From Squalus acanthias (lineage: Eukaryota): a DNA stretch of 64,000 bases. Numbering within the stretch: position 1 is the first letter of the stretch; every line of letters begins with the position of its first letter. The stretch spans positions 98,272,001 through 98,336,000 of the forward strand of contig CM059432.1 in the NCBI GenBank assembly GCA_030390025.1, written 5' to 3'. This document shows, piece after piece, positions 3,375 to 61,404 of this stretch. The notes under the pieces are model-generated. The model was given only the letters and a program-made list of their open reading frames with translations, was not told where the DNA came from and did no database searches. The position numbers and the translations under genes were made by a program.

Positions 3375-3890
3375 GTACACTGTAGGAGCAGTAACTAAAG
3401 GGAATGCTTCCGTGTCGCTTGAACATTGAGAAAAAGGCGCTTTCAGTGATCGCAACGTTTATTACTTGCACCAGTCTGCTGCCTGTGCAAAATTTTTTAC
3501 ACCTTTTCCTCAAACATCTCCAAATGCTGCACTTTCTGAAAGTGATGGGGGCTGCGATGGAAAGTCGCCCAGGTCGCGTTGAAAAACACCACTGATGACT
3601 ATGAGGTTATACAACGTGAATGACTCTTCCCTTTAAGAGGTGGAAGCAGCCTGTGTGATTAAAGAGTGCCGTTTGGACTGTGCATGACCTTCTTTATCAC
3701 TCTGCCAGTAGTGCCCCGCTCTCAGAGGTTAGCACCCTAAGTTAGGAGTGCAGCGCTTGATTTAGCGCTCCACTTCCCTCTTGGAGCACTAACAATAAAT
3801 TTTGCGGGAGTCGACAATGATTAGCACCTGGCGCTAATTCTTCAACTTTTAAAGTTTTAGCTCCCCAAACGGGGCTATACTGAATTTCTG
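3375..3890 (-). mobile_element. Harbinger-type MITE remnant related to 28923-29680
   Basis: Shares AGCGCTTGATTTAGCGCTCCACTTCCCTCTTGGAG and CCCCAAACGGGGC...GAATTTC with the reverse complement of the 28194/28923 MITEs. Confidence 0.6.
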
Positions 3891-31676: not shown

Positions 31677-31826
31677 GACATCGAAAATCACTGAGCATGC
31701 GTCAATTCGGCGTTGCATGCCAATTGACATCGTGCTCCTGGTCATTAAAATATTTGCAGCGAGTGCAGGCAACAGCAGCGCTGCCGACCTGCCCAATATG
31801 GCGGCCGCCACGTTTCGCATCAGAAG

Positions 31827-33259
31827 TGTAAAGTTTCGCAATTATCGCGATTCGAAATAACAAGATAGAAGCAGATTCGTTTGATCAGTTTATTTAAACG
31901 AAATGCTGTCATGATTATAAAGGACACAGAAGCCTGTAAAATGGCCGCCGCGCATCGTGGCAGAAGCTTCCAGAATTTCAGTGGGCAGACAAGATGGCGT
32001 TCGAATATACATTTCAAATATAAGACGGGATCATACTCGATGAGCACTGATAAAGACAGGATGCAACCTGTTTGCATTTGTGACAATAGCAAAAGATATA
32101 AGTGCTGGAATCGTTTTCCATGCACAAGTAAGGACCATTGTACTGGGCAATCGAAGGCCCATCCAGACACATCAATACACAAATACCCCCATGGCTCTAC
32201 AATGAGAGAGCCATTCACGGGTGATTAAGTCAGTATTCGAGGAGGCCCCAAAACCAGTCAGGGAGACTCCTAGCCGGTTCGACAATGGGGAAAACATTAA
32301 CGAGTAGTTGCCAGCTTCAAGTGCTACCGAAACCCATTAAAGAAGACAACCGCCCCATGCTGGGAGCTTTGTGCACCAGTATTACACAAAGGACAAACAT
32401 TAAGATTTGGGCGGGAGATAAGGGAACACAGCACTATAACTATAGTGAACAAATGTCCATTGGGGGCTTATTCGCTTGAACCGACCCTTATCTCTGCGGA
32501 CTCTTGACTCGGGCTGAACTCTTGATTCGACTATTATTCTCTTATCTAGCTGATGACTGCTGAACTCTTATTCGCTTGCCGCTTCATGGACTCGCTTGAC
32601 TGGTGAGCATTTGACTGTCTCTCTGGACTTCTACAACCATGTGCGAGTTCTGTCGAGTTCGTCATGACAACAGGGAGTCGGGCCTGCTTGTCGCAGCAGC
32701 GAAGATAAACAAGTGGGGTACAGAGACCCCTCCAACCATGTGACAGTCAGGTGCTGCAGCGAAACGAGCCGAGTGCCTTACTTTAAAATTCTCCGAAGTA
32801 TCACGAGTGGTGAGCATGTTTCCCGATCCTACAAATCTAGACGTAGTGTAGGTATTGATAGGGGATAGTGGTTTTATTAAGGATAAAGTATAATGTGTTC
32901 CCCTTTTTATGATGTGCCGTGCGTTCTTCATTACCATAGACCAAGCTTTATGAATGTATGTATACTTGTACTCTCGTTAATTTGTGCCTATGACATGTAC
33001 TTCATGATTTTAGACGCTATGCAATAAAGATTTCCATTTCGTACTATTCAACCGGGTCTATTTGAGTTTTTCTCTGCATTGCTGCTCTCGCACCTAAGTC
33101 CAGTGTTAGAACCGTAAGGGCGAGTGGGTCGAACCACTCACAGGTGCTTATTGCAACAAGGCTGGCCGGAGACCAGAGCAAGCAATAGTATTAGGCAACG
33201 AAGGCCTAACCCCGCACCAGCACCGTCTGCGATACAAGCACGACACCGAACCCCTTACA
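31827..33259 (+). mobile_element. Solo LTR (1433 bp) related at its termini to the LTRs of 53542-61404
   Basis: TGTAAAGTTTC...CCCCTTACA; GAAG duplication (31823-31826, 33260-33263); interrupts a Harbinger terminus (31677-31826 / 33260-33343); TATA-like at ~32435; AATAAA 33023-33028. Confidence 0.88.
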
Positions 33260-33999
33260 GAAGTGGACAGAAGCAAGGCGGCCGCCATTTTTTATTCAAA
33301 ACCGGCCTTAACAGCTGAAGCTAAAGTTTACAATTTCTAGGCCTAAAATTGTTCAGATGAAAAGAAGGATTTCCTAGCGGTAGAGCATCAGGATATGTAG
33401 ATTATTTCAAGACGAACTCTTGACTTATAGAGTAATTCTCAGTAAATTCAGCAAAAGAAATACAATCAATCAAAAAAAATTACATTGTAGACTGGAAACT
33501 TTACCCTGAACAATATGTCTTCAAAATTTCTTTCTGGTTGCAATTTGTACTTGGGAAAGCAACATTATTCATAAGGTAATGCATAATATGAAAAAGCAAT
33601 GAGGAGTTTAAGAAGGAGAAAATGAGAAATTGTTGAATATTACGACAACTTCTGACTCAAACGTATCAGTGATATTTATTTTGGCAATCTGTAATATTTA
33701 TAAGTTTAGTTGTATCTTGTCACAAACATATTTATTATCATTATACCTATTTCTCTGAGAATGTTTAATATTTTATTTTGCTTCAGAGACATTCTAGATC
33801 TCATTCTGTGAACGCAGTTGCTAATTTTATTGTTGCCTGTGCCACATGATTGATATCTGCCATATATGAAAATCAAAAATGACAAGCAAACCTCCAAAAT
33901 ATCACTTTATGATCAGCACTCATAAATGAAGTTGCGCAATGTATTTAAAGGTATATTTAGGATCCATCAAGAACTGCACATCCATGGAATAAACAAACT

Positions 34000-37625: not shown

Positions 37626-37839
37626 AAATGAGAAGTTGCACAACACCAGGTTATAGTCCAACAATTTTATTTGAAATTACGAGCTTTCGGAGCTCTGCTC
37701 CTTCTTCAGGTACAGATGTACCTGACGAAGGAGCGGAGCTCCGAAAGCTCGTAATTTCAAATAAAACTGTTGGACAATAACCTGGTGTTGTGCGACTTCT
37801 CATTTTTGTCCACCCCAGTCCAACACCGGCATCTCCGCA
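37626..37839. mobile_element. Penelope-like element terminal fragment forming a ~180-bp palindrome
   Basis: 37626-37712 is the near-perfect reverse complement of 37719-37805, followed by a short tail; TCAATAAGATCAT duplicated at 37613-37625 and 37840-37852. Confidence 0.8.
37719..37753 (+). ncRNA. Minimal hammerhead ribozyme motif (second copy on - strand, 37678-37712)
   Basis: TAC-CTGACGA-AGGAGC-GGA-GCTCC-GAAA-GCTC-GTA: CUGANGA and GAAA cores, GGAGC/GCTCC stem II, TAC/GTA stem I. Confidence 0.7.
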
Positions 37840-53541: not shown

Positions 53542-54661
53542 TGTAGGGGGTGGTGGTGGTAGGGGTCAGCCTTTCCCCTGACTCAGTGAGCGGTTCGAAT
53601 CGCTCCCACGCCCCAGGTTCAGACCTTGGACTTAATTAGGGGTTGTGAATAAAGATGCAGTAGACAACAGGTTCCGATGAAAGAATTTTGGCTTTTATTC
53701 AAAGTAAAAGGTAACAAACTTAAAACACACTTCACACTTAAACAGGTTGGGAAACATACGGTACAGGCGAGGGAGAATGACAATATACAAAACCCTTATC
53801 CCTCCCAAGAATCCCACTATCTAGCTAGGTTTTTGGTTTCAGGAGATCAGGGATAATGCTCACCAATGAATCCTTGACAGGATTTTAGAGTCTTTTGATT
53901 AAAACATTTTGTAAAGCCCTTGTTGCTGCGAGGTGTCCGATGGTCACTGAGGCAGTCGCTCTGGTTTCTTCTTGTGTGATGGTCTGTTTGTTGGCCTCCC
54001 TCCTTCCTCCTCGTGGCTTGTGGTGTCTTTTGCTGGAGCAGGGCTGAGAGAGAGAGAGAGAGAGAGAGTTGTTCCAGCATTGTCAGCGAGTCTAAAAAGA
54101 GAGAGCGAGTCTTGGGTCAGGCTGCAATTATATAGTCCTTTTCGCGCCCAAAACCCCTTACTAAAACGGTTTCGTGCTGAAGTGATTGGTTTCAGTTGAG
54201 GCCTGTTCATTCCATTGTCTTGTTAAGTTTGGATGGGCCTTCAACTATGCTAAACCAAATCAAATCCTGGTCAATTGAAAGACCTCGTTACCAGTAACGG
54301 CTTTTTTACTGAGTCAAATGGCTTGCGTCCTGTCGATCTGTTGTTTTATTGGAGTTTGCAGTATCCTCATGTTTTGGGTTTCTTGCTGGGCCTAGCATTC
54401 CTATCTTTATGCGTCTCCTTTAATGGGTTGTGTGTTTTGGGTGGGGCGGCCTTCTCCCAGGGCCTATTGTCCAAATGTTAATGTTTGCTGGGGCTTGAAT
54501 TCCCAGACAATGCAATACCCAAAACTGCTATTTACAGAGGTTGATCCCACATGCTGTGCAGCCTCCTCTTCCTTACATGTCCAGACATGTTCTTTTAAAG
54601 TTCCAAAGTCCTTATTTTTTTCCTTAGATTTTGGGGATCTGCAAATTTTGGAAACTTTACA
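53542..54661 (-). repeat. 3' LTR (1120 bp)
   Basis: Direct repeat of 60288-61404; on the - strand TATATAA at 54128-54134 and AATAAA at 53694-53699. Confidence 0.97.
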
Positions 54662-54672
54662 GTCCCTCCTGC
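54662..54672 (-). other. Polypurine tract
   Basis: - strand GCAGGAGGGAC directly before TGTAAAG of the 3' LTR. Confidence 0.7.
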
Positions 54673-54951
54673 GATACTTTGAGTTCACTACAGTATCGTC
54701 CTGGGTGGACAAAATTCCTGATCCCCGAAAACCAACCTTCCCCTGTATTACCTAAACTAAAACCCAAACATACATTCCCCTTTAAATGTGGTGTTTTAGG
54801 TGCATACAGGTAAGAACATTTTTATTTCACAACCAAGCACGGAAAGGGTCCGACACCCCTGCACTGCCTGGGAAAACACATATATCTTTATTAAACAGAA
54901 CAAAACACAAAAAAACAACAATCTTTATTCAGGAACACAGAATAAAAAAAT

Positions 54952-57293
54952 TCAAACAGGTGTATCTCTCTCCACCTCAGCATAATGCTTCTTCCAAGTC
55001 CTTTCATTTCGGAACTGTAGTATTCTGCCCTTTCCCTTGCACTGAGTGCACACCAGGTACAATACTATTCCCAGTTGGCAAACTACGAGGAGGTGGGAAG
55101 CCATTCTGACCCATGAAGGGACCTCTATGTTTTCGAAGATGTCCCACCAGGGTGATACCTTGAATCTCTCTCTATCTCGTGTGTTTTCTGTTCTAAAGTG
55201 TAGAAATGTTTTTGTGAGAGCTCTACAGCTTTTAGTAACTTGGTAAGGCGTTCTGGTAGCTGGGGAATTTCGTAGCCAAAATGTGCTACATATTTTTGCA
55301 GGTTGGTGAAATTTTGTGTTACAGTGAGGTGAACAGTGGAGGGTTCAGGAATGGGGACAATCCGTTCCTGGGCCACTTGAACTGCTGCCTCGGGTTTAAA
55401 GCAGAAACTGCTGTCACTTACCGGACACCAGGTATGCTGTCCATACTGGTAGTGAGGCGCGCTGGTGGTGACACAATATGTCCCACCTCCTATATATGCT
55501 ACCTGTGGAGGGACATGGTCTTGTGCCATTACCTCCATGGTACAGTTTATAGGTCGTGCGCCAGCAGCTTTAAACCCGCACTGTGGTTTAGAATAGGCGT
55601 TCAAGTGCTGGGGACACAGTATTATGTGTGCTCCCCGGCTCCAGCACCCGGAGAGGTCTGTACCTGTCATAGCGTGCTCCCACTTTATGACATAAGGTGG
55701 GACAGCTGTGAAACGGATGTGTGCACCCCCTTGAATGACTCCAATGTTCTCCACCCTGTATACCGGTGCGGGTCGGGCGGTCCCACCCATGACCGGCATC
55801 CTCACCACTATCTCCATGATAGTGTGATTGGAACACCCACAATCTACTGGTACAGGGTAGGCTTCAGAGGCTAGACGCAGCTGACATGGGCTTAGTGAAT
55901 TCTCAAATGGGTGGAGGGCTGCGAGGTGCTTGTTGCTGATCCAGGAGGGGACTAAACCTTGCTTTAAATCCTCCAGGTTACTCCGGCCCTCGCCTCGCAA
56001 CCATGCCCCGTACCGTATGCACACCTCGTTCTGTGCAGCCTGGTCTGATGCATTCCTGTCCTCCCGTATGAGTGCATTTACCGTCTTTGCATGCCTTTCC
56101 AGCTCAGCAATGATTTATTTTAAATGGACCGTCATAGCTTGGTCCTCGTGTAACTCTGAGCCCACTACTGTATTTTCATCCATTAAGATTTTGCGTAATT
56201 GTGTTTTTAAACCGTTTATTTGTGGCTGCAATTCTATGTCATCCAGACTGTTGATGACAGAGGACCCTGTATTATATGCTGTAAAAACATCATTCCAGGC
56301 TCCCCTCCTTTGTCTCCCCGTATTGCTAAAATACTCAGTGTGTGCAGTGTACAGTTCTGTTTTGTCTACGTTTGCGAAATCGAACTCGTAGAACTTCCTG
56401 AACATTTCTCTGAACAGGGCCTGGTATAGCTGTTCCGTCTCTTTGGGGCACCACTCAGGTAAGTGTACCTCCGTGAGGTTTAGGATCACGGAAGCTACCG
56501 CATAGTGTACCCCCTGGTATAGCACCTTTTCGGTTGGCACTAGTACCAGCCCATTCCCTGGTCCCTTGGTGGTGGCAGGGCACGTCTCTGTGTGTGTCCT
56601 TGCTGTCTGGGTCGTGGGCAGGGGCTTACGGGCGTGTGCCACGAGTTCAGTGGCCTTGACTGGGGCTGGAGAGGGCGGGACTATGCAAGTGTGTAGGTGG
56701 GAATCCCATTTCACCCACTTCCCCTTATCCAGCCATGCTGCGGAAAAGATAATGGATATGCCCGTGGGGCAGGCCTTCCGCGACCCCCACATGCAGACAT
56801 AAATCCCCTGTTCCGATTTCTACCACTTGTCCCAGCACACGCTCACACCCCTATGGTCCCCTGTAATGGTCCGATGGGTGTCGTTCCCCAGTCGCTCCCA
56901 GTCAGCTGTACGGTCCCCCATATCTCTGCTCAGCTTCCTGAGCCACCACCACCTCCCCAGGGGAATCTGTCCTCTGCAGGTCAGGCACACGCGTTTCCCC
57001 TCAGTGACCCCGACCCGAGTGGCTACAACCTGTATGCTGGGACAGGGGAGGGAGGCCTCCCCATAGGTGAGCCCAGTCTGACTGGAGTATCGGGTGGAGT
57101 TAGATCCCAGCCACCCTGGCCATCTTCCCACGTGGGAATAGGTAGCGAGCTCCTCCACGCCTCGCTTGCTGCCCCCCGCAGTCACAACCGGTGCTCTCTC
57201 TCCTGAGCACCCAAAAATGTGGGAGTCCTCCACGTCACCTCGCCTCCCAGCGCTCATTCCTATCAGAGCGAGTAGGAGTATGCCCCCCTTCAT
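54952..57293 (-). pseudogene. env: Envelope glycoprotein (~780 codons): signal peptide, Ig-like domain, furin site, class I fusion-like ectodomain, TM; two in-frame stops and one frameshift
   Basis: ORFs 56820-57440, 56115-56792 and 55125-56024 share one frame (stops at 56820 and 56115). Signal MKGGILLLALIGMSAG; RQRR|GAWNDVF at 56315-56304; a shifted frame gives PWWDIF...MASHLLVVCQLGIVLYLVC...DTPV* ending at 54952. Confidence 0.85.
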
Positions 57294-57307
57294 ATCGACA
57301 ATCCCTT

Positions 57308-57328
57308 CTGTAAGGAGACACAAGAGCA
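57308..57328 (-). promoter_or_regulatory. Putative env splice acceptor
   Basis: - strand TGCTCTTGTGTCTCCTTACAG|AAGGGATTGTCGATATG, 14 nt before the signal-peptide ATG. Confidence 0.65.
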
Positions 57329-57613
57329 TATAGCCAGGTCCCGAGTAGATTCTCTGGCTTGGGTGAAGCATAGTCGGGTCTTGCAACCTCGACTCAATGC
57401 AAAACACTCTTGAAACTATAACATTTAAACTACCAACCACCTTACTTAAAATTTAACTAAAAACACCCAAACTTAACAATCTCAAAATTTCACAATAAAA
57501 GCTATGTACATTTGCCACCCGTCTCCGAGCAGCCAGCCTAAACCCTGTCGGGCTGCAGCACACTACTCGCTTTGGTGTGGCCGCCCTGTCCTGTACCTGT
57601 TGTCCCTTGCAGC

Positions 57614-58461
57614 CTATGGCTGCTGGCTGCGGACCTCTGTCCTCAGATCGATCCCTGACTTGAGGGGCGACCTTTTTAAATTGGGGAGCCGGTGACCACG
57701 GTTTCTTTGGCTGTGGCGTTCGTGGGGACCTTCTAGGGGCTCTGGCTGGTGGGGTTTTCTGGCTGGTGGGTCTTTAACATGAACCACTGCCCCCTGTTGT
57801 GTGGTCTGTGAATCATCCACTGCCACTGCCTGGGGATTTCTATCCTCAGAGTGTACCTCTTCTAAACCTGTGTCAGGGTCAGGTGACTCTTCGCAGCCTG
57901 GTGCTGCAGGCTGCGGGTCCCCGCCTCCAGGTTCAAAACCTGGGTCGGGGGCGGGGCTATCTGGTTCGGGCTCCTCCTCCTCCCCACCTGAGTCCCAGAA
58001 GAGAGGGGGGGTGGTTTGAACAGGGGCCTGGGTGACTCCTCCCTCAAGACAGGCCACCGCCCCTGCTTGTGCAGTCTGTGAAATTGCTCCTGCTGCAGGC
58101 TGAGGATTTCTAACCTGTTTTAGTTTGGGCAACTCTGCTACCATGGCTTGCAACTGCGGGTGGTGAATTCCCCCGGGGTTGTTGAGCAAACCATCCCTCT
58201 GGCTTTGGATAGGGCTTGGGCCAGACCTTTTATCCTTTCCTCACAGGGCCCATGGTTTAAATCCACATACTCCCTGCTCCTGGCTACGCTGTAGGCTGCC
58301 TTTATGTCTCTAAGCTGCCCCTCTAGCCCGTCTACTTTACCCATTAAGCGGGTGTTCTCCTCCCGTAAGGCCTGCTCATTTAACCTGGCCTCCTTACGGG
58401 AGGTCTCTTCCTGTGCGTGTCTTTCAAGGGGACACAGGTAGACAGGCTGCGCTGGTTCTAG
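57614..58461 (-). pseudogene. Gag-derived read-through ORF in the pol position (one frameshift near 58165-58190)
   Basis: Open in the gag frame from 58461 to 58138; similar to the Gag coiled-coil/DHGPC block, then HPQLQAMVAELPKLKQ (Gag: TQQLRVMVSHLSKLTQ), then an acidic Pro-rich tail. Confidence 0.7.
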
Positions 58462-60285
58462 TCAGAAGTCTGGGTTGTATGGGGCTGATGGGGTCAGAGC
58501 ACCGATGGTTGCTGCTACCTTCCCTGGGCCAGTCAATAGGGACCTCATGGCGTCCAACAATGACTCGACCGTGGCGGGAGGGATCCCTGTCTCTGCCTTT
58601 TGGGCTGGGGCTGAGGAATTCTTTCCCTTGTTATCCTTCCAAGGATTCTTACACTCCTTCCTCCAGTGACCATCCTTCCCACACCCATAACAGTTAAGCT
58701 TTGTGCTGGAAGGGTTATTCCCTTCCTGATGCCACTCCTTCCTACTCTGGCCGGGTTTTATTTCATGTACTTTCCCTTTTTGTGGGGGCTCTTCCGCTCC
58801 TCTACCGTTCCGGTAGGCCAGGTTCAGCTGTCTGACCACTGCCTCCTCGGTGACCCGGGGGTCTTTCGGGTCAAACCAAAGCTCAGCCTGGGTTTTGATC
58901 CGTGGCAAGCTGTTTGCCACTAGGCTATGGAGCCAGTGGGCCAGCTCATCCCGGTTTAGGTGAGCCCTGTTAAGATCCCCACTGCAAGCACCCCTGTACA
59001 CGGGCCACAGCCTGTCTGCGAACGCCTGTGGGGTCTCTCCTGCAAGCTGCACTGTTTTCTCCACCCGGGAGAAAGGACTTCCCTCATTCATCCCCATGGC
59101 CTCTAAAACTTCCTCTCTGATGGCAGCATATCCATTCTGTCCTCTCTTGCTCTCAGCAGAGAGGGACTGGTATAGCCGGCTGTCCAGTGAGAACAGGAGC
59201 ATTTTTGCCATCTTGGCATCATCACAGTCGTTGATGCCTGCTGCCTGTTCTACTTCTATGAAGTGAACTGAGGGGTCCCCTTGTTGGGTGAGTTTACTCA
59301 GGTGGCTTACCATAACCCTAAGCTGTTGTGTACCGTGGGGAGCCATGAACTGGCATTGGAGGGGTCCCCCATCCCCGTTATCAGCAGGTGGGCCAAACCT
59401 TTCCTGCCGGGCCGGGCACATCGGCCCCGGTCCCAGCCTCTCTTGCGGGGGTTTTTCCACCTCAGCTTCTGCCCCTAACTCCACCCCTTCTTCTTGCCAG
59501 ACTTCGCTAAAGCTTGGCGCTATGGGTGGTGGTCGTGGGCCCTCCTGCTCCTCAACCGGGTCGTCCCTTGGCGCTATCTTTGGTATCTGAACCGTTCTCC
59601 CCAGGTTCCCTGTAAAGTCGACCTGGGCTGCACTTGGGCTTATGAGGCACGCCACACCTCTTGCCTTCCTCAGAGCAAGGCTGAGACTCTCTATCTGCTT
59701 CTGACAGGGGCCATGGTCTGCATCCTCAAACCCCTGTGCTCTCATTACCTTATAGGCTGCCTGTAAGCCTTTTACTGTCTCCTCCTGCTCTCTTACTTGT
59801 TTTGCCAGGCGGGCATTCTTTTCCCGCAACCTCAGCTCATTGTTCTTGGCCTCTGTGACCTGGCACTGTAAATAATCCTGCCAGGTCTTATGTTCCCCCA
59901 CTAACTGCACCCTTTCCTGGTTTAGCGCCTGCAATGCTAACAGTAACTTCTCCCCTGCTAGGGCCTTTGTTTGGACTTCCAGGGCTGACTCCCGAATCTC
60001 AGCTGCCTGTGCTTCAACGAGTCTGTCCAAAAGTTGGATCTGTTTCTTGAAGCACATCAGCCAGACTGCCTTTTCTAAGGATTTTTTATGATCCTTCCCT
60101 TCTGTCCATTTAGCTGCTGCATCTACCGGGCGCCCAGTTTTTAACAGATTAGTGACCCACTTCTTTTCCATATTCACTTTGCTGAATACATAATCTGAAA
60201 TCCTCTCTTCCATTACAGTTCTCTCTTCCGAATCAGTGTCTACTGCTTCACAACCCTTTTGCCAAGTCCGTACCACAGTCGCCAT
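58462..60285 (-). CDS. gag: Gag polyprotein, 607 aa, uninterrupted
   Basis: N-terminal coiled coil, Pro/Glu linker, MHR-like QLAGETPQAFADRL, CCHC knuckle CYGCGKDGHWRKEC, C-terminal PSAP; first ORF after the 5' LTR. Confidence 0.93.
   Translation of the reverse strand: MATVVRTWQKGCEAVDTDSEERTVMEERISDYVFSKVNMEKKWVTNLLKTGRPVDAAAKWTEGKDHKKSLEKAVWLMCFKKQIQLLDRLVEAQAAEIRESALEVQTKALAGEKLLLALQALNQERVQLVGEHKTWQDYLQCQVTEAKNNELRLREKNARLAKQVREQEETVKGLQAAYKVMRAQGFEDADHGPCQKQIESLSLALRKARGVACLISPSAAQVDFTGNLGRTVQIPKIAPRDDPVEEQEGPRPPPIAPSFSEVWQEEGVELGAEAEVEKPPQERLGPGPMCPARQERFGPPADNGDGGPLQCQFMAPHGTQQLRVMVSHLSKLTQQGDPSVHFIEVEQAAGINDCDDAKMAKMLLFSLDSRLYQSLSAESKRGQNGYAAIREEVLEAMGMNEGSPFSRVEKTVQLAGETPQAFADRLWPVYRGACSGDLNRAHLNRDELAHWLHSLVANSLPRIKTQAELWFDPKDPRVTEEAVVRQLNLAYRNGRGAEEPPQKGKVHEIKPGQSRKEWHQEGNNPSSTKLNCYGCGKDGHWRKECKNPWKDNKGKNSSAPAQKAETGIPPATVESLLDAMRSLLTGPGKVAATIGALTPSAPYNPDF
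60267..60284 (-). other. Primer binding site, tRNA-Ser-like (imperfect)
   Basis: TGGCGACTGTGGTACGGA starts 3 nt after the LTR; TGGCG is complementary to the CGCCA end of tRNA-Ser; isoacceptor not resolved. Confidence 0.55.
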
Positions 60286-60287
60286 TA

Positions 60288-61404
60288 TGTAGGGGTGGTG
60301 GTGGTAGGGGTCAGCCTTTCCCCTGACTCAGTGAGCGGTTCGAATCGCTCCCACTCCCCAGGTTCAGACCTTGGACTTATTTAGGGGTTGTGAATAAAGA
60401 TGCAGTAGACAACAGGTTCCGATGAAAGAATTTTGGCTTTTATTCAAAGTAAAAGGTAACAAACTTAAAACACACTTCACACTTAAACAGGTTGGGGAAC
60501 ACACGGTACAGCGAGGGAGAAGGACAATATACAAAACCCTTATCCCTCCCAAGAATCCCACTTTCTAGCTAGGTTTTTGGTTTCAGGAGATCAGGGATAA
60601 TGCTCACCAATGAATCCTTGACAGGATTTTGAGTCTTTTGATTAAAACATTTCGTAAGGCCCTTGTTGCTGCGAGGTGTCTGATGGTCACTGAGGCAGTC
60701 GCTCTGGTTTCTTCTTGTGTGATGGTCTGTTTGTTGGCCTCCTCCTTCCTCCTCGTGGCTTGTGGTGTCTTTTGCTGGAGCAGGGCTGAGAGAGAGAGAG
60801 AGAGAGAGAGAGAGCTGTTCCAGCGTTGTCAGCGAGTCCAAAAAGAGAGCGAGTCTTGGGTCAGGCTGCAATTATATAGTCCTTTCCGCGCCCAAAACTC
60901 CTTACTAAAGCGGTTTCGTGCTGAAGTGATTGGTTTCAGTTGAAACCTGTACATTCCATTGTCTTGTTAAGTTTGGATGGGGCTTCAACTATGCTAAACC
61001 AAATCAAATCCTGGTCAATTGAAAGACCTCGTTACCAGTAACGGCTTTTTTACTGAGTCAAATGGCTTGCATCCTGTCGATCTGTTGTTTTATTGGAGTT
61101 TGCATTGTCCTCATGTTTTGGGTATCTTGCTGGGCCTAGCATTCCTATCTTTATGCGTCTCTTTTAATGGGTTCTGTGTTTTGGGTGGGGCGGCCTTCTC
61201 CCAGGGCCTATTGTCCAAATGTTAATGTTTGTTGGGGCTTGAATTCCCAGACAATGCAATACCCAAAACTGCTATTTACAGAGGTTGACCCACATGCTGT
61301 GCAGCCTCCTCTTCCTTACATGTCCAGACATGTTCTTTTAAAGTTCCAAAGTCCTTATTTTTTTCCTTAGATTTTGGGGATCTGCAAATTTTGGAAACTT
61401 TACA
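60288..61404 (-). repeat. 5' LTR (1117 bp)
   Basis: - strand TGTAAAGTTTCC...ACCCCTACA; TATATAA at 60872-60878; (CT)n run; AATAAA at 60439-60444. Confidence 0.97.

Follow-up and report, generated by a model that had tools for sequence, protein, structure and literature searches.

The window, i.e., the whole stretch of 64,000 nucleotides of Squalus acanthias DNA that was analysed (GenBank assembly GCA_030390025.1, contig CM059432.1, positions 98,272,001 to 98,336,000), carries a solo long terminal repeat (LTR) and a provirus that belong to two families of endogenous retroviruses (ERVs), here named F2 and F1, respectively (Table 1). All of the strings quoted in an earlier note on this DNA were found where it had placed them, and the half of the structure that it had overlooked, namely the primer-binding site (PBS) together with the leader, lies outside the LTR. 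The segment it singled out (33095-33259) represents the last 165 bases of the solo LTR and, because the poly(A) signal AATAAA at 33023 precedes it, belongs to U5, with an R/U5 border that we infer. Splice-donor-like GGTGAG blocks are present inside the LTRs on the 5' side of the poly(A) signal (at 32602 and 32809, and in the 60595 region on the minus strand), which suggests a long R region. First-look searches of the genome with the provirus LTR and the solo LTR as queries returned 2163 F1-type and 1850 F2-type candidates, respectively, and at least 40 near-identical F2 copies were among the matches listed. Elsewhere in the window, a near-perfect palindrome of 88 nt (37672-37759), which reaches 53 bits with Rfam mir-1597 against a gathering score of 93, is probably a MITE-like hairpin.

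Table 1. Features of the solo LTR and the provirus in the window.
Feature	Position	Strand	Remarks
Solo LTR, family F2	31827..33259	+	1433 bp; starts with TGTAAAGTTTC, ends with CCTTACA
GAAG target-site duplication flanking the solo LTR	31823-31826 and 33260-33263
Poly(A) signal AATAAA of the solo LTR	33023..33028	+
5' strand of the extended stem; partner of the leader in 5' LTR copies	33077..33091	+	Outside the segment covered by the earlier note
CCAGTGT, 5' strand of the U5-leader stem	33100..33106	+	Partner in 5' LTR copies: ACACTGG at the PBS end/leader
GAACC, complement of tRNA-Arg 52-56	33109..33113	+	PAS-like motif predicted to pair with the T-loop
GTAAGGG, 5' strand of the U5 terminal stem	33114..33120	+
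Hairpin H (GAGTG/CACTC)	33122..33139	+	TCGAACC at 33129-33135 complements tRNA-Arg 52-58
Variable family-specific insert	33143..33251	+	Inner helices GGTGCT/AGCACC, CTGG/CCAG, TTAGGC/GCCTAA
CCCTTACA, 3' strand of the terminal stem and integrase attachment end	33252..33259	+
Provirus, family F1	53542-61404	-	GAGC target-site duplication
Provirus 5' LTR	60288..61404	-
Provirus 3' LTR	53542..54661	-	Hairpin H at 53588-53605
Provirus U5 core	60333..60374	-	Leader-stem strand 60367-60374, GAACC, hairpin H 60333-60350
Decayed tRNA-Arg primer-binding site	60266..60284	-	ATG over the first PBS bases, in frame with gag
Leader strand, partner of U5 60383-60408	60240..60257	-
Provirus internal region	55125..60327	-	gag with CCHC knuckle 58462-60327, coiled-coil ORF replacing pol, broken env

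The two LTRs of the provirus are identical at 1087 of 1113 aligned bases. No reverse transcriptase (RT) was found in its internal region (55125..60327, minus strand), where gag and a stop are followed by a second copy of the Gag coiled coil in place of pol (57600-58460, minus strand) and by env. The same pol-less layout was observed at loci L063 and L069 and occurs with both F1 and F2 LTRs, suggesting either exchange of internal regions or a common non-autonomous ancestor. Autonomous relatives encode protease, RT, tether, RNase H, integrase, and env, and the coding ERVs are 8-11 kb long. Env (L068:8018-10000; 55125-57450 on the minus strand of the window) contains an RxRR site of the furin type and stretches predicted to be coiled; comparison with Pfam and Atlas gave no relevant match, and likeness to the Pfam fusion glycoprotein F0 was not seen. 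Both F1 and F2 have an ATG in the gag frame that lies over the initial bases of the PBS (60266-60285, minus strand; L080-L128), and two alternative tRNA-Arg PBSs result in different Gag N-termini (MATAAG vs MATTKG).

F1 and F2 share about 82% identity in RT, 66-68% in Env, and about 51% in C-terminal Gag. Their LTRs, which the earlier note could not align by eye outside the U5 structure, proved to be homologous: the first 11 bases are identical, weak blocks are found in U3, and the U3 alignment of the solo and provirus LTRs scores -41, compared with shuffled sequences (n=100) at -66 +/- 7 and -43 at best, although the likeness is faint. Homology and selection are not alternatives in this case, as the U5 block has persisted while U3 has nearly dissolved. 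In an RT tree built without F8 (no usable RT) and without snakehead retrovirus (SnRV), F1, F2, and F3 group together (96/68) within a clade (100/99) that also holds F4, F5, and F6, three families devoid of the hairpin described below, and the nearest proteins come from frogs and coelacanth. Judged by eye from RT motifs, with SnRV outside the tree, the clade appears to be snakehead-retrovirus-like. Membership in the lokiretroviruses was considered in view of the dual RNase H and the coiled-coil ORF and finds no support in the RT motif: the Loki motif YANSPAEF has 25 matches in the published supplement, whereas LPQGFHNSP of the RTs studied here has none, in a comparison by motif rather than by tree in which line wraps may hide some matches. 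In the accessible part of the lokiretrovirus paper, such elements are reported in none of three chondrichthyan genomes.

The U5 regions of the solo LTR and the provirus both contain a hairpin (hairpin H) whose stem was described in the earlier note as having swapped GAGCG/CGCTC for GAGTG/CACTC. This compensatory change from C-G to T-A is real, and two more families add GGACG/CGTCC and GGTG/CACC, which makes four family-specific stems on one common loop. In six hand-picked sequences, pairing is kept in 96.7% of 30 cells with two-sided changes in three of the five pairs, and the covariation score was reached by none of 500 shuffles, which ignore relatedness. Genome counts were obtained by pattern searches, the cross-family MAFFT alignment being too poor for a covariance model. 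The pattern, GAACY followed by the loop of the hairpin with no demand for stem pairing, has 18,106 matches in the genome compared with 30 for the reversed pattern used as control. The suggestion that such matches should sit at LTR 3' ends was borne out in the 30 loci that were fetched: a poly(A) signal is upstream in all of them, and the match is followed by a PBS in six, by the end of a solo LTR with matching duplication in one, and by an LTR-type terminus in 23, in which a duplication was not visible with a 1.5-kb flank and a loose pattern. Hairpin H is found in four of 13 families (F1, F2, F3, and F8), and the stems and GAAC are kept in F4, F5, and F6 while the TCGAACC hairpin is absent. 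Related U5 sequence is also present in sequencing-run contigs from several organisms (unstranded, with a guessed RNA status).

Pairing of GTAAGGG with CCCTTAC (33114-33120/33252-33258), which had been read on the antisense strand, is indeed present and equally possible on either strand. This terminal (U5-IR-like) stem is clear in F2, F3, F4, F5, F6, F8, and F11 and irregular in F1; thus, the topology said to be common to the solo LTR and the provirus is loose. Among the extra helices proposed in the same place, GGTGCT/AGCACC is mostly retained from one subfamily to another, where swaps occur and some columns are mismatched, whereas TTAGGC/GCCTAA and TATTGC/GCAATA are limited to one subfamily, the latter with one two-sided change (in L122). 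The U5 region of the solo LTR folds similarly well in both orientations (sense z -2.50, antisense z -2.15), and the provirus U5 alone has no unusual stability (z -0.57 to -0.99).

The PBS of young copies is the exact complement of positions 59-76 of host tRNA-Arg(TCG), including CCA (18 nt), and a second type of PBS presumably complements the 3' end of another Arg-type tRNA. LTR-PBS junctions were detected at 3381 sites in the genome (control, 0), and 113 of them were examined, of which 94 are distinct and fall into 11 families plus two with other primers. In 5' LTRs, the TAAGTCCAGTGT block of U5 is complementary to the leader directly behind the tRNA-Arg PBS, and a longer stem prolongs this pairing. 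Block and partner change together from family to family (CCAGTGTC/GACACTGG, CCAAGGTC/GACCTTGG, CCAAAGTC/GACTTTGG, CCTATCGTCC/GGACGATAGG, and AGTCACGTCC/GGACGTGACT). The strand at 33077-33091 has no partner within the solo LTR, which we regard as a passenger copy because its leader half has been lost. When U5 and leader strands of 13 family representatives were combined, cognate duplexes had a mean energy of -32.2 kcal/mol compared with -18.0 +/- 5.2 kcal/mol for non-cognate ones, and the cognate partner was the best in 11 of 13 rows, a result matched by none of 200,000 permutations, with anchors picked by eye and families that are related. Of 19 representatives examined with an anchor-free helix finder restricted to Watson-Crick pairs, 14 yielded the model stem and five did not. 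Unconstrained folding of sense RNA gave the leader stems in four of five copies and the terminal stem with the inner hairpin in three of five; RNAalifold on 12 F2 copies recovered the extended leader stem, the terminal stem, and hairpin H, with the first U5 strand partly paired with the PBS in another register. Taken with the hairpin covariation and the excess of pattern matches over the control, these family-specific duplexes uphold the view that structure has been under selection across a clade of elements.

Several observations concern the junctions and the primer itself. One family has a doubled U5 end (L191, L195, L196, L200, and L204), in which an old LTR terminus and a decayed PBS lie 5' of the current ones. 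In F9 (L120, L169, and L176), U5 and leader are near-identical across copies, GAAC is absent, and the PBS is of two types, which we take to correspond to an Arg-type or a Lys-type tRNA. Genes for tRNA-Arg(TCG) were identified at L071:1500-1584, L075:1432-1523, and L079:1500-1590, in tandem arrays with a period of about 1.6 kb on one contig (C26 of genome G000), which holds 99 of the 100 matches listed out of 422 genome matches to the gene pattern. They contain an insert between positions 37 and 38, the canonical intron site, that can pair with the anticodon and measures 16-17 nt in L075 and L079 and is shorter and damaged in L071; to our knowledge, human Arg-TCG genes are intronless.

Two short motifs connect U5 to the primer: GAAC complements tRNA positions 53-56 and the TCGAACC of hairpin H complements positions 52-58, which adjoin the PBS-paired positions 59-76. 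In the anchor-free analysis, 9 of 19 representatives have a GAAC that starts 0-6 nt past the best helix, compared with a background of 7.6%. The loose GAACY pattern is matched by 90 of the 94 distinct junction copies, and TCGAACC is kept in 60 of the 94; by family, GAAC is present in eight of 13, F7, F10, F12, and F13 have an altered form, and F9 lacks it. Because the GTTC of the T-loop does not vary among tRNAs, covariation of GAAC with the primer cannot be demonstrated, and conservation of a T-loop complement does not by itself prove pairing. It might be argued that the stems are real while GAAC and TCGAACC owe their conservation to a protein (Gag/NC, RT, integrase, or TFIIIC on DNA) or to control of the poly(A) site, their complementarity to the T-loop being a coincidence. 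GAAC is just 4 nt long, the families have a common ancestry, and the poly(A) signal precedes the motif by 80-110 nt, all of which would suit such an explanation. However, GAAC is located where the U5-leader stem ends and the released T-arm of the tRNA would be expected, a second exact complement of 7 nt is present, and the stem of the hairpin covaries, which would be needless for a site in double-stranded DNA; we thus consider this explanation very unlikely.

Judging from sequence comparisons, we think it likely that this U5 end is the left half of a junction in sense RNA that would form around the tRNA-Arg PBS to start reverse transcription. Before priming, the partners of U5 would be the leader and the bases that end the PBS. 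Annealing of the 3' 18 nt of tRNA-Arg to the PBS would displace U5 from the PBS end and free the T-arm, after which U5 GAAC(C) could pair with tRNA positions 52/53-56, and positions 57-58, left unpaired, would act as a hinge. The junction would be given its shape by the terminal stem, which has the integrase end as its right strand and would tolerate the variable insert inside it.

The earlier note had instead read the structure on the antisense strand, as an acceptor stem plus T-arm. If this were the selected fold, transcription of the minus strand, perhaps by Pol III with GGTTCGA as its box, would yield a product that might be cleaved by RNase P/Z or serve as a self-made primer. Antisense T-loop-like matches (n=81) comprise 64 copies of hairpin H, 16 of the first motif in F1, and one outside any LTR. 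On the antisense strand, all four hairpin families retain GGTTCGA together with a C at position 61, and the first motif forms a perfect antisense T-arm (5-bp stem, 7-nt loop) in 15 copies, a second and canonical one that is confined to F1. However, T-arm geometry is found in none of the 64 copies of hairpin H, in which G52 cannot pair with position 62. No common CCA, D-arm, anticodon arm, or cloverleaf was found among the families, a CCA 3' of the stem being present in F1 only. ARAGORN, even at a relaxed score of 95, and Rfam found no tRNA in the U5 of the solo LTR or the provirus, relaxed ARAGORN giving just inconsistent mitochondrial-type calls on both strands. Moreover, the elements already own exact tRNA-Arg PBSs, the hairpin is absent in the related families F4, F5, and F6 while the frame persists, and an antisense mimic would leave the U5-leader covariation unexplained. 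On the basis of geometry and family distribution, we rejected the tRNA mimic as the selected object and consider it highly improbable.

Strand-specific signals in the helices were also examined. Shared G-U and A-C columns number 19 vs 16 in strand-neutral helices, many of which are spurious; for the helices of the model they number 11 vs 6 (p 0.33), and both results are compatible with the antisense strand as well. The sense duplex is the more stable one in 12 of 13 families, and likewise in 71% of non-cognate pairs; its energy advantage is -4.8 compared with a baseline of -2.9 (p 0.065). At three columns, pairing is kept solely as sense G-U in 18, 19, and 19 of 34 F2 copies, which reflects lineage-wide changes and speaks for the sense fold. 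In 31 of 31 F1 and 16 of 34 F2 copies, hairpin H has an innermost pair that reads A-C on the sense strand and would be a wobble on the antisense strand only, which speaks for the mimic; the sense A-C pair fits an 8-nt loop with the C kept for the tRNA, and equally fits the mirror strand. U5 occurs once in retroviral genomic RNA, at its 5' end. Considering this and the PBS-centred layout, we infer that the fold acts on genomic (sense) RNA. The antisense tRNA-like appearance probably mirrors an ordinary fold of viral sense RNA, since the complement of a T-loop complement resembles a T-loop, and reverse-strand T-loop look-alikes at LTR ends would be expected for the same reason.

The least certain step in the junction proposed here is the role of hairpin H in the subset of families that have it. 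It may provide a second T-loop docking site (complementary to tRNA 52-58) that captures or opens the primer, and could even be a dedicated tRNA-capturing loop, whose T-arm complement of 7-9 nt would kiss the T-loop before the PBS is annealed; both ideas are tentative, and we would put each of them below an even chance. If the latter were true, a tRNA-capturing hairpin added by one sub-clade would amount to a two-site device for primer loading, which is absent from the literature searched. A different role has to be weighed, in which the frame is a scaffold for the primer site or packaging and hairpin H is a dimerisation (kissing) loop that acts through its TTCGAA/TCGA palindrome independently of tRNA. 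The loop is exposed and palindromic, its stem covaries, it lies near the 5' end of the RNA, and the 6-nt palindrome TTCGAA occurs in F1, F2b, F3, and F8. However, the abundant GGTCGAAC variant of the loop, to which the solo LTR at 31827-33259 belongs, has the 6-nt palindrome broken and TCGAACC whole, and TTCGAA is AU-rich beside known dimer-initiation loops, which we also count against dimerisation; we therefore regard it as improbable.

Among known systems, Helenus (TRIMp3) LTRs also have a box-B-like GGTTC within the LTR, and the accessible part of the report describes non-coding elements of 311-1263 bp with boxes A and B and a tRNA-derived Pol III promoter (PMC10886601). In the elements studied here, U5 has the box on its reverse strand, and no A box or cloverleaf is common to them. 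Assignment to Helenus/TRIMp3 was rejected, as these are coding ERVs with LTRs of 1.1-1.4 kb or more. The RT motifs LDISNGFWSI and LPQGFH-SP-IFHQ match those of SnRV RT by eye (supplement of PMC7947760), and the tether plus RNase H is another feature in common with SnRV-like ERVs, which include elephant shark CmiERV lineage I (PMC4422223). We found no description of the U5 structure for the SnRV-like group in the literature searched, and the fold appears to be undescribed in shark and fish ERVs in the portions consulted (including PMC12193657, PMC3592414, PMC12440569, and bioRxiv 10.1101/2023.10.26.564294), a set mostly made up of papers other than subscription ones.

The junction proposed here resembles that of avian sarcoma/leukosis virus, as far as the accessible sources describe it, in that a U5 strand pairs with the leader behind the PBS and adjoins a T-loop complement, and in that a stem closes U5. 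The avian stems in question are the U5-leader and U5-IR stems. In the avian virus, U5 and tRNA-Trp's T-psi-C loop have been reported to interact (Aiyar 1992; Morris 2002, as cited in the consulted part of PMC3185550). Unlike that system, the shark elements use a tRNA-Arg primer, belong to a fish-type ERV clade, and enclose in the terminal stem an insert that varies and reaches about 110 nt, and, as judged from sequence, they have an extra hairpin with a second and longer T-loop complement. The PAS/anti-PAS of HIV-1 is likewise a short viral complement of the primer T arm near the U5-leader stem (accessible parts of PMC3185550 and PMC1865047); the HIV-1 PAS is 8 nt long and buried in a stem, whereas the complement found here has 4-5 nt and is predicted just outside the stem. 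The interaction of the HIV-1 PAS is described as contested in the consulted part of PMC3185550. If our reading is right, the primer-junction design of avian retroviruses and HIV would extend to a distant, fish-type retrovirus clade, and natural covariation of the U5-leader stem together with a conserved T-loop complement would bear on a question that is still argued for HIV-1.
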